IMG/VR virus record: IMGVR_UViG_2671180778_000014
Coordinates: 1 to 35,491 of that record
Source: a virus
Taxonomy: Duplodnaviria; Heunggongvirae; Uroviricota; Caudoviricetes
Strand: one strand, 5' to 3'
DNA: 35,491 bases
Part shown: positions 6,166-10,361 of the stretch, piece by piece
Layout: each line of letters begins with the position of its first letter
How positions within the stretch are numbered: position 1 is the stretch's first letter
Program-made: the position numbers and the translations under genes
The notes under the pieces: model-generated
What the model was told of the DNA's origin: nothing
What the model saw: only the letters and a program-made list of their open reading frames with translations
The model's database searches: none

Positions 6166-9100
6166 TTAAGAAACAGTAATACCCGTAGTGGCTTTTTTAG
6201 TTACCATTACAGTTAAATCACTGATCCATGTGCTAGGCGTCCAGTTGTTGATTGCGCTTGATTGCACTTCAAAGGTCAAGGTCACAGCACCTTTACCCGC
6301 TGGCATATCAATAACACCTGAGTAAAGACCAGTATTACCGCCATACGCCCTATTATACAACTCTGACCCATTCTTACGAACAATCAGGCGACATGTGTCG
6401 TAATAGGTATTATTGTTCGACCCTTCACGCGCTCGCAATCCACCAAAACTAATTGCCGGAATAACGATTTGACGATCGAACTTGTGATCATCTTCAACGC
6501 GAACAGTGACCGTACCCTGTGGATAGCCAGCATAACCATTATCAACGTTAACATCACGGTGCGGGAACTTACGACCAATCACCTTAACGAAATCACCCTT
6601 AACCTGAGTAGCTTCAAGCATACCCTTAATAACACAGCTAGAGTTAATCGTGACGTTGTTCAGAGTACCAGAATCAGCCGTGATATTACCTTTAACGGTA
6701 GCGTTCATGAACGTAGCATTACCGTTCTTGTTGATATGCCATCCGGTCGATCCGTTCCAGTTGGAAGACTGGATATAGTTACCGATTTTAGCGTTATCAA
6801 TTGCGCCATTTACAATCTTGGCGTTAGTGATTGCCCCGTCCTGAATCTTCGCGCTGTTAATTGCAGCATTGCCGATCTTAGCGGTAGTAATTGCCGCATC
6901 ATTAATCTGGGCTGTACCAATTGCAGCATTACGAATCATCGCATTATCGAGATAAACCTTGTTACCTTCGATACCAAACGGGCAAACATCGGTCCCATTC
7001 TGCGGAGCTACAGCAATTTTATCAGCCGTAAAGATGATTTTAGTCGGTTGTGCCGGATCGTTGGTTGCGCTCATGTGAATACCAGCCACACGACCATCTG
7101 CATTAACTGCCAGATTGTATTTGCTGTTAATGGTTCCTTTCAAAGCATCGATTTTTACATCTGCTTCCTGATTCACACCAGCAATCTTGCCATCCATTTC
7201 TACCCGAACTTGATCAATCTTACTTGCGCTTGCTGCCTCACTGGTTGCAATTGCTTGTTTCAGGGTTGTAGCGGAGGCGCTAACTTCTTTGGTGATATCG
7301 CCTTTCAGTTCAGCTTTAACCTGATCAATCTTAGTTGAACTTGCCTTATCACCAGAAGCAATCAGACTCTTTAAGGTATCGGCTGAGGCTTGAACAGTTT
7401 TACCCGTCTCGGTAGTGATTTGCTTATGCATTGCATCAATTTTAGCATCGGCATTAGCGCCAGCTTGCTTAATAGCATCCGCGATAGTTTCATCTAAGCG
7501 ATCTTGTAAACCGATCAGGTCTTCCAGTGCTTCTTTGTCCTGATCGTCCCAACTAATCGTAGACTTCATTTGCATGAAATACGGTTCAGACCAAACAGCA
7601 TCATCCATACCGAAAATATCGTAGTGAGCACCACGGATATAATAATCACCGTCAGCAATATCAAAGGAAGTATGGCTAACACTATTCGTGCTTACTGCCC
7701 TTGCATCTGAGAAAGTGTTATCGGTTGCATACTGGATGATTGACCCTGCATAGTCATGTTCTACGTCATCCGCCCAGCTAACAAACGCAGTATTAAAGCC
7801 ACCACGCGCACTAAAACCTTTCATTGGCTTATGCTGTGGGTTGATAGCCACTAAACGCGCTGGGGCGCTCTCTGAGTTGTTATAGCCCTTAGCCGATACT
7901 TCTACCGTAAGTTGTCGCGAAAGGCCGTTAAACTGGTTCATATCAAGTGTATAAGTCCATGATTCAGGATCGCGGGTACGGTACTGAATAGACTTACCAG
8001 CCTTGTTAGTCACCTTGATAATGTATGCTTCAAACAGGTCACTAAACTTGTTAGTTTCACCGTTGATCATCACATCTAATTGTTGCTGATTTTCCCATTC
8101 GATAATCAGATCATTACCTTCGAAAGTTCCTGGCGTGCTACCCTGATTTTTGATTCGAATAACCGGAGTCGGTAATTCATAGGTAACAGTAGGATTCTGG
8201 TTAATCAGTTCTACCCAATCAGATCTCGCGATGATACCGAAAGCACAAACTCGGTAATCATAAGAACGATCTTTTGCCAGTGCACTGACACTGAAAATTT
8301 GCTGTGAAGTCTGTCCCAGCTTAATCCAGTTAGGCGATCCACTAACACGGTAATCAATCTGGAAGCCGTAGCGGTTAAAATCTTCCGGCGCATCCCATGT
8401 TAAAGTAACGTTCTTACCATAGATTGTTTCACCAGTTGCCTTAATTCTGAAATTAGTAGGCTTCTGTACTGTCATTGAATCCGGTAAACCACTTGGTCGG
8501 TTATCTGGGTTAGCCGCATAGTTCAGGTCAGTATAAACCTGAGAATTATATTCTGTGGCGGTGATCGTCATCATCCCAGCAATACCAGAATCAATCGAGC
8601 GGTCAATTGCAGTAATACGCCAAAGTGAATTATTCAGTTTTAATTCATCATAGGTTACGCTGATAACATCCCACACCTCGGCAGTGAATGCGTCAGTAGT
8701 CATAAAGCTGATAACCTGAGTGATACGAGATTTATTTCGTTCAATGCTCGCAAGTTTATCAATCTGGGCTTTAGACTTAACAAAACGATATTCGATATCC
8801 TTAGCGATAATTCGACCATCTTGACGAATAGTAGCATCGTTTTCAGCATCAGCCGGATAACGTAGCATTTGCTCTGAATAGTCAATAGATGGTTCTTGAT
8901 ACATCGCGTTAATGGTATTGAAATAACCGTTAGTGCCACCTGTTTTCAGTGATACCTTACCCATCATGATATTGTCTTCATTGAAGGTATGCTTAACAAT
9001 ATCAGGAGCATCCAGTTTCAGGGTAATTCTTCCGAAGGATTCGAACATCACCCCGCCGAAAGTCTGCATAAGGCTAGTCAAGTTCTCTTTAAAGCTGGCG

Positions 9101-9942
9101 TTCGGATCACATGCACCGTTTGAATGCAAATCCATCTGGCGTACTTGTTTACGTACTTTCAGGAATGAATCAACGTTGATGTTTTCAATTGGTACTGATA
9201 AACCATATTTTTCATTTGTTAGGTAGTGGAAAATCTGGTCCACGCCGTTAGTGCTAGCCTCAATAGCATTAGTTTCAAGGTTACGAATCTTTAAGCCCAT
9301 AACATCGACTGCTACCTGGCTATTTGGTTGAAGGATATCAACACCAGCAGCCAAAGATTTATCGTCACGACGTAACACAATACACATGGTTGCAATACCA
9401 TTGCCTTTGTAGTTGTCGTTCCAGTCTGACCCTAAGTGACGTTTTGCCAGTGACAACGCGGTGTTAGGATTCTTACCAGTGCGGAACTCAACCTCTAAAA
9501 CTTTCCGGTATTCTTCTTTAATGTTGCCTTTGTCCAGTACACCATCACGGATCGTCATGTTCTTACCAACAAGAACATTTTTGTTATCGATGAATAGTGC
9601 TTTGTAATGGTCGATTTCACCCTCTGCAATTGCGAAGATTTGCACTAACTTATTGTTTTCTTGCTTAGAAATTGCTTTGTAAACGCAGATTGCACCCGTG
9701 CGGGTAGTACCGAAAAGAACGGGTAATACTGTCTTCGGATCGTTTGATGTTCCTAGTGTCACCGCATTATCTGGGCTTTGTACTTTCGGTGTTTTTGGTG
9801 CGCCTACAGTGGAAGCGATCAAGGTCATTGCACCAGCAGCCATACCGATAGCGACTGCGGTCATAACAGAAAATGTTGCAGCAGCAGCCATCCCAGCAGA
9901 CGCACCAGCAATAACCGCGCCTACCAATATTTCAAATCCCAT
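6166..9942 (-). CDS. central tail fibre / host specificity protein (lambda J-like) with N-terminal hydrophobic segment
   Basis: 1258 aa; C-terminal region (SGTLNNVTI ... DDHKFDRQIVIP ... VIDMPAGKGAVTLTF ... VMVTKK) resembles the lambda J C-terminal receptor-binding region as recalled; position after M/L/K-like genes. Confidence 0.85.
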   Translation of the reverse strand: MGFEILVGAVIAGASAGMAAAATFSVMTAVAIGMAAGAMTLIASTVGAPKTPKVQSPDNAVTLGTSNDPKTVLPVLFGTTRTGAICVYKAISKQENNKLVQIFAIAEGEIDHYKALFIDNKNVLVGKNMTIRDGVLDKGNIKEEYRKVLEVEFRTGKNPNTALSLAKRHLGSDWNDNYKGNGIATMCIVLRRDDKSLAAGVDILQPNSQVAVDVMGLKIRNLETNAIEASTNGVDQIFHYLTNEKYGLSVPIENINVDSFLKVRKQVRQMDLHSNGACDPNASFKENLTSLMQTFGGVMFESFGRITLKLDAPDIVKHTFNEDNIMMGKVSLKTGGTNGYFNTINAMYQEPSIDYSEQMLRYPADAENDATIRQDGRIIAKDIEYRFVKSKAQIDKLASIERNKSRITQVISFMTTDAFTAEVWDVISVTYDELKLNNSLWRITAIDRSIDSGIAGMMTITATEYNSQVYTDLNYAANPDNRPSGLPDSMTVQKPTNFRIKATGETIYGKNVTLTWDAPEDFNRYGFQIDYRVSGSPNWIKLGQTSQQIFSVSALAKDRSYDYRVCAFGIIARSDWVELINQNPTVTYELPTPVIRIKNQGSTPGTFEGNDLIIEWENQQQLDVMINGETNKFSDLFEAYIIKVTNKAGKSIQYRTRDPESWTYTLDMNQFNGLSRQLTVEVSAKGYNNSESAPARLVAINPQHKPMKGFSARGGFNTAFVSWADDVEHDYAGSIIQYATDNTFSDARAVSTNSVSHTSFDIADGDYYIRGAHYDIFGMDDAVWSEPYFMQMKSTISWDDQDKEALEDLIGLQDRLDETIADAIKQAGANADAKIDAMHKQITTETGKTVQASADTLKSLIASGDKASSTKIDQVKAELKGDITKEVSASATTLKQAIATSEAASASKIDQVRVEMDGKIAGVNQEADVKIDALKGTINSKYNLAVNADGRVAGIHMSATNDPAQPTKIIFTADKIAVAPQNGTDVCPFGIEGNKVYLDNAMIRNAAIGTAQINDAAITTAKIGNAAINSAKIQDGAITNAKIVNGAIDNAKIGNYIQSSNWNGSTGWHINKNGNATFMNATVKGNITADSGTLNNVTINSSCVIKGMLEATQVKGDFVKVIGRKFPHRDVNVDNGYAGYPQGTVTVRVEDDHKFDRQIVIPAISFGGLRAREGSNNNTYYDTCRLIVRKNGSELYNRAYGGNTGLYSGVIDMPAGKGAVTLTFEVQSSAINNWTPSTWISDLTVMVTKKATTGITVS

Positions 9943-10361
9943 TATTCACCCCCGAATCTATAAACTTGTTCATAGTCAATGTCTGAAACAGGAATGGTCA
10001 TCCAGATACCATCTTCTTCAACGAGGCCATAACCGGAATAATGAGGAACTACGGAATAATAATTACGGTTTCCTAATTTGTGGGCTGTGACCAGTAAGTC
10101 GCCGTCCTGTAAATCATCAGTGACTAATTTGAAATGTTTCTTAATTGGTTGAAGGATGTTTGAATACCCGCTTAATTCTTTGCAGATTTTCAAGCCTTCT
10201 TCTTTAGTTGAATATTTTTTATAAAGAGAATTATATAGGTCAGTACCAGCGAGAATATCGATGATCTTACATGCAATGAGATTGCAATCATTCTCACCCT
10301 GAACGAACTCCTGACCTATTAAAGAATTGATGTAATCGGTGATAAGCCTAGTTTTTAGCAT
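9942..10361 (-). CDS. tail assembly protein, gpK-like (NlpC/P60-type Cys/His pattern)
   Basis: ATG at 10361 preceded by GGAGG with 8-nt spacer; ENDCNLIACKI and later His are compatible with a K-type peptidase fold; stop overlaps the J start (TAATG). Confidence 0.5.
   Translation of the reverse strand: MLKTRLITDYINSLIGQEFVQGENDCNLIACKIIDILAGTDLYNSLYKKYSTKEEGLKICKELSGYSNILQPIKKHFKLVTDDLQDGDLLVTAHKLGNRNYYSVVPHYSGYGLVEEDGIWMTIPVSDIDYEQVYRFGGE

Follow-up and report, generated by a model that had tools for sequence, protein, structure and literature searches.

In phage lambda, cryo-electron microscopy has resolved gpI as two helices (H1 and H2), a plug (residues 159-175) and beta-strands (PMC11101478). 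The C-terminal part of gpI is present in the virion, where its beta-strands augment gpJ. gpI blocks gpH, and in the open state its helices leave the cone towards the membrane (PMC11101478, PMC10721106). The lambda structure papers equate gpI with the plug of T5 and propose the insertion of H1 and H2 into the outer membrane (PMC11101478, PMC10721106, PMC12617516). Iyer, Burroughs and Aravind described in 2006 fusions of TAPI with TAPJ and gave the TAPI-C domain its name; in their model, the ubiquitin-like (Ubl) domain of I is set free by the JAB domain of K (PMC1779556). In the megatron proteins of the Rhodobacter capsulatus gene transfer agent (RcGTA) and of the roseophage R4C, the first ~46 residues close the channel and have been proposed to penetrate the outer membrane (PMC7296036, PMC10276861). 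The T5 protein pb3 has a membrane-inserting plug with tip residues 233-236, located just before an IPVVYG strand at 262. Here, we analyzed the tail tip encoded by the Caudoviricetes record IMGVR_UViG_2671180778_000014 of IMG/VR (35,491 nucleotides, the whole of which we call the window), in which a J-like protein starts with a gpI-like module and a separate I gene is missing.

The J-like open reading frame (ORF) at 6166-9942 on the minus strand, the strand of all tail-tip genes discussed here, encodes 1258 residues. The 139-residue ORF upstream of it, a member of the DUF6950 family, most likely starts with the ATG at 10361, which has a GGAGG 8 nucleotides upstream. Its TAA stop codon (9942-9944) overlaps the ATG of J (9940-9942), which is preceded by the G-rich ribosome-binding site GGGGGTG. 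Since a stop codon lies in frame one codon 5' of the J ATG (the stop-to-stop segment being 6169-9945), a hidden N-terminal extension of J is impossible. In an E. coli prophage with 97% identity, the Prokaryotic Genome Annotation Pipeline (PGAP) called the same two genes with the same 1-nucleotide overlap. When the whole window was scanned in six frames by phmmer, the lambda gpI query returned a single match, the N-terminus of J itself (gpI 117-213 against J 6-98, E 6e-4); the scan thereby revealed no I-type gene between the DUF6950 gene and J, nor elsewhere in the window. The gpK and gpL queries of that scan, which also included gpJ, had no match. An earlier note on this DNA, made from the sequence alone, had reported the TAATG overlap and the absence of an I gene, and both are confirmed by the ORF coordinates, the six-frame scan and the PGAP calls. 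In tail modules of this kind, a missing I gene is no annotation gap.

The N-terminus of J reads MGFEILVGAVIAGASAGMAAAATFSVMTAVAIGMAAGAMTLIAS, identical to the segment quoted in the earlier note. Its first 46 residues consist of 43% alanine plus glycine with one charged residue. The 19-residue Kyte-Doolittle means stay at 1.35-1.88 throughout, with maxima at 5-23 and 24-42 that match the two hydropathy maxima of lambda gpI at 105-123 and 138-156. Composition-corrected BLASTP aligned J 3-106 to gpI 103-222 (E 4e-5), and hhalign with a six-sequence family profile aligned J 48-93 to gpI 158-209 with a probability of 93% (E 2.4e-7), a segment falling outside the Ala/Gly-rich stretch. Searched against the PDB, the six-sequence profile identified lambda gpI at E 1e-5 and a broader 33-sequence profile at E 1.3e-8; the latter still matched a 90-residue gpI chain without H1 at E 5e-7, with a bias of 0.3. 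The 33-sequence profile also matched T5 pb3 at 262-318 (E 8e-10), the C-terminal half of the gpI-like protein of F2 pyocin (E 4.8e-6) and residues 8-89 of the RcGTA megatron g15 (E 6.6e-4); the C-terminal half of the gpI-like protein of phage T1 was not matched significantly (E 0.06). The Pfam gpI model PF06805 (Lambda_tail_I), which recognizes lambda gpI itself at 1.1e-28, had no match in J or in its N-terminus even at E<=10; this model spans only the ubiquitin-like N-terminal domain. The features of TAPI-C, namely two hydrophobic helices, a plug and beta-strands ending in an LPVLYGxxRVG-type motif, were all found in J. These alignments support the homology of the J N-terminus to the C-terminal part of gpI, for which composition alone does not account. 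The resemblance to the C-terminal region of gpI, which the earlier note had offered, is thereby borne out by direct alignment, and the significant similarity includes the part outside the hydrophobic stretch.

We then have to ask where the gpI-like part ends and the gpJ-like part begins. A profile was made from 52 such proteins, using the N-terminal 230 residues of each: positions 6-95 matched gpI 118-212 (38.7 bits), positions 95-151 matched gpJ 21-84 (weakly, with 7 bits), and positions 203-244 matched gpJ 257-310 (14.5 bits). As these three lambda segments were matched in order, the profile is collinear with the C-terminal half of gpI followed by gpJ, with the junction at position 95. In T5 pb3, the IPVVYG and EGEI halves of the corresponding motif are contiguous at 262-304. 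In an AlphaFold2 (AF2) model of J, the gpI-like strands 79-83 and 85-91 and the gpJ-like strands 98-118 were modelled consecutively, with a predicted local distance difference test (pLDDT) score of about 79-85. The collinear profile and the continuous motif of T5 pb3 indicate that the lambda I/J gene boundary divides what is one chain here, cutting through the strand pair. The structures of lambda, T5 and RcGTA had suggested separately what is now supported by sequence: the plug element always stands just before the first hub strand (IPVVYG...EGEI). This element closes the tail tube of siphophages and is probably the first to touch the outer membrane.

The arrangement is conserved well beyond the window. 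The region from the K position to J was matched in 57 of 5426 complete E. coli genomes, always on the chromosome, with a coverage of 80% or more in 54 of these genomes. In all 44 IMG/VR loci with a relative, including relatives just 40-51% identical, a DUF6950 ORF lies directly upstream of a J-like ORF starting with the module; the junction is mostly the 1-nucleotide overlap (TAATG), with a 10-nucleotide overlap in some loci and a 1-nucleotide gap in others. Close relatives were fragmentary in Salmonella, and a 47-52% relative was found in Citrobacter. Word-indexed protein searches gave close enterobacterial relatives only, the wider family becoming visible by an exhaustive profile search of 1.84 billion representative proteins, which returned 109 matches. 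In at least 65 of these 109 representative clusters the protein is long and carries the module N-terminally or close to the N-terminus; most others look like fragments retaining the EGEI strand, and no stand-alone gpI was apparent among the 109. The pair of hydrophobic segments is conserved down to relatives with 17% identity across the N-terminal module. Three matches (P0084, P0082 and P0061) have an extra N-terminal domain of ~100 residues and are full I::J fusions; P0084 (1720 residues) combines a ThiS-like domain, the module at 110-220, and then FNIII-A_GpJ and Phage-tail_3. PHROG 31 ("central tail fiber J") matched the N-terminus of the window protein at profile positions 182-313, implying that fused members are already within that family. 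The layout is real, conserved and widespread, and it was known in outline already from the TAPI-TAPJ fusions and from the iris/penetration domain of RcGTA and R4C.

Megablast of the region against 50,697 phage records gave nothing; with the J N-terminus as the query, tblastn matched phage DCP80 and, in a T5-like Vibrio phage, the pb3 homologue, and no others. Escherichia phage DCP80 (PQ671644.1, 18679-22437) encodes a J homologue of 1252 residues with siphophage-like neighbours annotated as hypothetical; the record (141 kb) is classified as T4-like Tevenvirinae, and a chimeric assembly is possible. In Citrobacter portucalensis (JAKIHQ010000004.1), DUF6950 directly follows a 158-residue ORF in the tail-tube position, the tape measure, distal tail protein and hub genes are missing, and J is split into ORFs of 720 and 424 residues; this locus looks like a decaying prophage. 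In one E. coli genome, J is shortened to 333 residues (P0010).

Compared with lambda, J 1-94 corresponds to gpI from about 103 to 209, collinearity with gpJ sets in at J residue 95 (gpJ 21), and the fibre shaft and C-terminal receptor-binding domain are of the gpJ type. Unlike lambda, however, one gene serves here instead of two, J lacks the ubiquitin-like N-terminal domain, a short linker stands where gpI has its last ~15 residues and gpJ its first ~20, and the neighbours are DUF6950 and a PF09931 hub protein in place of gpK and gpL. The TAPI-TAPJ fusions likewise carry the I and J functions on one polypeptide, but they retain the ubiquitin-like domain, whereas the window protein starts directly with the TAPI-C part. 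With RcGTA and R4C, J shares a hydrophobic stretch of ~46 residues at the position of the iris/penetration domain, and the window also encodes a separate upstream hub protein with the PF09931 attachment domain (of marginal score here). In contrast to their megatrons, J ends in a gpJ-type shaft and receptor-binding domain (the C-terminal 450 residues) rather than in a fibre-binding domain for separate trimeric fibres, the hub protein is without the four cysteines of the iron-sulfur site, and the host is an enterobacterium. Between hub and megatron, RcGTA and R4C have an NlpC/P60 peptidase of about 150 residues; here DUF6950 takes the same position with the same size. The link to RcGTA comes from the 33-sequence profile match plus one fold match; P0074, which was guessed to be GTA-like, matched T5 pb3 and not RcGTA with phmmer. 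The pb3 proteins of T5 and DT57C provided the best Foldseek match to the J hub (about 1e-35) and share the IPVVYG...EGEI motif. In T5, however, HDI is in the same chain, whereas here the HDI-type domain is encoded by a separate gene (10408-11061); the shared motif starts at residue 262 in pb3 and at residue 71 in J; the pb3 plug is a beta-hairpin-forming domain, not two hydrophobic helices; and receptors are bound by the separate proteins pb4 and pb5. Alishewanella phage LSH1, considered as a close relative, has a different, single-chain hub (PMC13243795).

On the observed homology, collinearity, gene layout and conservation, we propose that J is probably a trimeric tail-tip hub and central fibre that carries the virion-retained part of gpI as its own N-terminus, acting as a plug and insertion module; that the module lies in the lumen, plugs the tube and inserts into the membrane is what we infer. 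By analogy with lambda, three J N-termini, one per subunit, would lie inside the tip cone and close the tube. They would also hold up the tape measure protein at its C-terminal coiled coil, as for gpH of lambda and pb2 of T5 (PMC10721106, PMC11101478). On binding of the C-terminal gpJ-type domain to an outer-membrane protein, the cone would open and the plug disassemble; the hydrophobic helices would then be freed in the direction of the outer membrane and probably enter it, before the tape measure protein and the DNA. The fusion of the module to J fixes a 3:3 stoichiometry, and neither the ubiquitin-like carrier domain (the N-terminal half of gpI) nor the JAB protease (the N-terminus of gpK) is needed; both are missing here.

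Several points weigh against this proposal. It presumes that J residues 1-95 are present in the mature virion, and they might instead be removed by cleavage. Outer-membrane insertion by the helices of gpI or of the RcGTA megatron is itself still a proposal. The RcGTA match is modest and was lost when the profile was cut before EGEI, and the match to the gpJ N-terminus is weak on its own and leans on the collinearity and on T5. Finally, in the AF2 monomer model of J 1-700 (pLDDT 75), residues 1-71 are unstructured with pLDDT <50, making the model uninformative there; such low confidence would be expected for a segment that needs its trimeric context.

A different function for the same module is conceivable. 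It might be structural only, plugging the tube and docking the tape measure protein with its helices packed in the lumen, and the channel would be made by the tape measure protein. The periplasmic channel of lambda has been credited mainly to gpH*, with gpI insertion just suggested (PMC12617516), and the T5 authors hold that pore-lining by a megatron helix "cannot be a general feature". We nevertheless consider this unlikely, as two consecutive transmembrane-grade segments of ~20 residues are conserved down to 17% identity and, in the open state of lambda, these helices leave the cone towards the membrane (PMC11101478). It is far more improbable that the N-terminus is an inner-membrane anchor or signal-like segment for assembly, unrelated to gpI and later removed. 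The Ala-rich hydrophobic stretch at the very N-terminus does superficially resemble a signal anchor, and the AF2 monomer shows no structure for it, but the homology to gpI runs on through the non-hydrophobic plug and beta-strands, natural I::J fusions have the module within the chain (in P0084, for example, at 110-220, after the ThiS-like domain), and the lambda counterpart is in the virion (PMC11101478, PMC10721106). A compositional coincidence or a fusion artefact (deletion, pseudogene or assembly error) can practically be dismissed: Ala/Gly-rich segments do inflate scores (HMMER bias 15.4 for the full gpI chain), but the hhalign match lies outside the low-complexity part, the gpI chain without H1 is matched almost free of bias, and 54 E. 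coli genomes, 44/44 viral loci and relatives of 40-50% identity all retain the intact layout, with PGAP making the same gene calls.

Tentatively, and as a possibility that we hold to be well short of probable, lambda gpI might be a detached hub N-terminus that was later given a Ubl handle removed by the JAB domain of gpK, and the fused phages without Ubl might use DUF6950 as a different, possibly enzymatic, assembly factor. In that case, the prophage would be a tractable system for the plug and membrane-insertion step without gpI processing. That an E. coli prophage has the fused form lacking Ubl together with a lambda-type receptor-binding domain offers convenient genetics for the requirement of the helices and for membrane entry. 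The same prophage would suit the questions of whether the Ubl domain and the JAB protease of lambda are dispensable add-ons and what the role of DUF6950 is.

The DUF6950 protein is not a recognizable gpK. BLASTP, hhalign, NCBIfam and a PDB profile search detected no similarity to gpK, and Pfam, NCBIfam and PDB searches gave no match to NlpC/P60 or JAB; in lambda gpK, by the same kind of scoring, NlpC/P60 and the end of a JAB domain are recognized. Nor were Ubl, JAB or NlpC/P60 domains found in the tail module of the window by Pfam, NCBIfam and a six-frame scan. The hhalign comparison with gpK reached a probability of 0.6% and aligned only a G..DC motif, which is suggestive, not evidence. Searching the PDB with a DUF6950 profile gave no relative, only chance matches to cohesin SA-2; phrog_2134, which the protein matches, is a family of unknown function; and a single-sequence AF2 model (pLDDT 38) was unusable. 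Cys26, in an N[DG]CN motif, and His76 are invariant in the DUF6950 relatives (L034-L048, IMG/VR loci), with which between about a quarter and a third of the residues are shared, as judged from the alignment by eye. The two residues are a candidate catalytic pair, and DUF6950 could possibly be a thiol peptidase; His94 was dropped as the catalytic partner of Cys26, not being conserved in distant relatives. The description of this gene as K-like in the earlier note holds for position and size only, and the label should not be placed on DUF6950 genes without evidence.

The remainder of J is a hub and fibre. Foldseek matched the hub (about J 95-480) to T5/DT57C pb3, T1, JBD30, lambda gpJ and Chi (E between 1e-35 and 1e-23). 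Between residue 496 and its end at 700, the AF2 model is all-beta, with many fibronectin type III (FNIII) matches in fold searches, and the FNIII assignment past residue 700 is an extrapolation. In the shaft, PF09327 (Phage_Tail_Tip) scored 4.8e-20 and 72.2 bits (cut-off 22). At about J 1005-1055 (window about 6778-6930, minus strand) there are 10-residue repeats of the form xxxAIxxAKI, about five by eye, of which the first three are exact AAIxxA[KQ]I matches; they sit in a BLASTP gap against lambda J, which has none, and may lengthen the fibre shaft. FNIII-A_GpJ, Ig_J and Ig_J_second were not found in J by Pfam at E<=0.01, whereas lambda gpJ has each at about 1e-40.

At the C-terminus, PF12421 (Ig_GpJ_C) matched at 4.3e-34 with 117.9 bits (cut-off 26.2), and NCBIfam lambda_TipJ matched J at the C-terminus only. 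The closest solved relative of the last 192 residues is 9wca, "A8 gpJ 713" (E 5.3e-54, 52% identity over 184 aligned positions), the relation to A8 gpJ being confined to this receptor-binding domain; that of lambda gpJ (8xcj) matched at E 2.9e-36 with 42% identity, and the C-terminus is about 53% identical to J proteins of Stx and other lambdoid phages. The likeness of the last ~180 residues to the lambda J receptor-binding region, as the earlier note had it, is therefore upheld as homology (gpJ chains at ~1e-35 to 5e-54). The hub region of J is too diverged from lambda gpJ for BLASTP. GpJ distal domains target LamB, OmpC, TolC or NupG, and the A8 gpJ chimera uses OmpC (PDB 9wca; Brodel et al. 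2024, PMC11338833). An outer-membrane protein is likely to be the receptor. The hint at a LamB-type porin fares less well: LamB is not favoured, given 52% identity to the OmpC-using A8 against 42% to the LamB binder of lambda, and identities of this order are too distant to fix the receptor.

Directly downstream of J, genes at 4158-4511, 5781-6059 and 5592-5762 (all minus strand) encode between them a 92-residue protein whose N-terminus is hydrophobic and which also has a coiled coil, a 56-residue hydrophobic protein and a Peptidase_M15 endolysin. In Drexlerviridae, extra receptor-binding genes lie downstream of J; the genes here look like a lysis cassette instead.

Table 1. Tail-tip features of the window, in the order of transcription along the minus strand.
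Feature	Positions	Strand	Basis
Tape measure protein, 810 residues	11674..14106	-	Position and length
Distal tail protein, M position	11061..11621	-	phrog_1302, 2.6e-16; weak match to the pb9 B-domain
Hub protein, L position, 217 residues, with attachment domain of the RcGTA g13 / phiJL001 gp84 type	10408..11061	-	PF09931, phrog_2048
DUF6950 protein, K position, 139 residues	9942..10361	-	Pfam PF22262, 3.3e-12; phrog_2134
TAATG stop/start overlap coupling the DUF6950 gene to J	9940..9944	-	Read from the sequence; kept in relatives
J 1-46, two Ala/Gly-rich hydrophobic helices, predicted transmembrane, putative counterpart of gpI H1/H2	9805..9942	-	Hydropathy, composition, alignment to gpI 103-157
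J 47-62 (GAPKTPKVQSPDNAVT), putative counterpart of the gpI plug (gpI 158-175, KARTPRIQTTDNGKQNTY)	9757..9804	-	hhalign, hidden Markov model alignments
J 63-94, beta-strand segment with VLPVLFGTTRTGAICVYKAIS, matching gpI 185-209 (VLPVLYGEMRVGSRVVSQEIS)	9661..9756	-	BLASTP, hhalign, profiles, AF2 strands
J 95-480, hub domains (putatively of HDII-HDIV type), starting LVQIFAIAEGEI	8503..9660	-	Start matches gpJ residues 21-35 and T5 pb3 ~290-304
J about 481-800, run of FNIII-like beta-sandwiches	7543..8502	-	AF2 and fold searches; boundaries approximate
J about 801-1066, fibre shaft, Phage_Tail_Tip domain at 931-1028	6745..7542	-	Pfam PF09327
J 1067-1258 and stop codon, gpJ-type C-terminal receptor-binding domain	6166..6744	-	Pfam, PDB, NCBIfam

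Among the other tail proteins (Table 1), the 217-residue hub protein matched phrog_2048, a tail protein family, at 1.6e-27 and PF09931 marginally, with 26.5 bits against a cut-off of 26; in E. coli genomes it is annotated as DUF2163 or "baseplate hub domain". A four-cysteine iron-sulfur site has been seen in lambda gpL (PMC10721106) and in the hub proteins of RcGTA (g13) and R4C (PMC7296036, PMC10276861). Such a site cannot form here because the protein has only two cysteines, Cys12 and Cys160. Upstream of the tape measure gene lie chaperone-like genes with weak matches to Phage_tail_T and TAC_13. Since non-lambda neighbours (the PF09931 hub and DUF6950) stand beside a gpJ-type distal fibre, the tail tip is a mosaic of an RcGTA-like proximal part and a lambda-like distal fibre.

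Further fibre genes were noticed outside the tip. In a 1207-residue fibre protein (16045-19668, minus strand), a T4 Gp34 trimerisation domain is combined with an S74 intramolecular chaperone at the C-terminus; the gene is flanked by the head genes and the tail tube gene (15515-15988), which is unusual for a side fibre. A 168-residue protein with a Gp38 adhesin N-domain is encoded after the tube gene (14840-15346, minus strand). The siphophage thus seems to have side-fibre parts of the T4 type in addition to its lambda-type central fibre. In a single 667-residue ORF (21476-23479, minus strand), an S78 prohead protease and an HK97-type major capsid protein are fused, as they are in the Citrobacter relative. 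Near one end of the window, on the opposite strand, a large serine recombinase (996-2690, plus strand) with Resolvase, Recombinase and Zn-ribbon domains is likely to be the prophage integrase.

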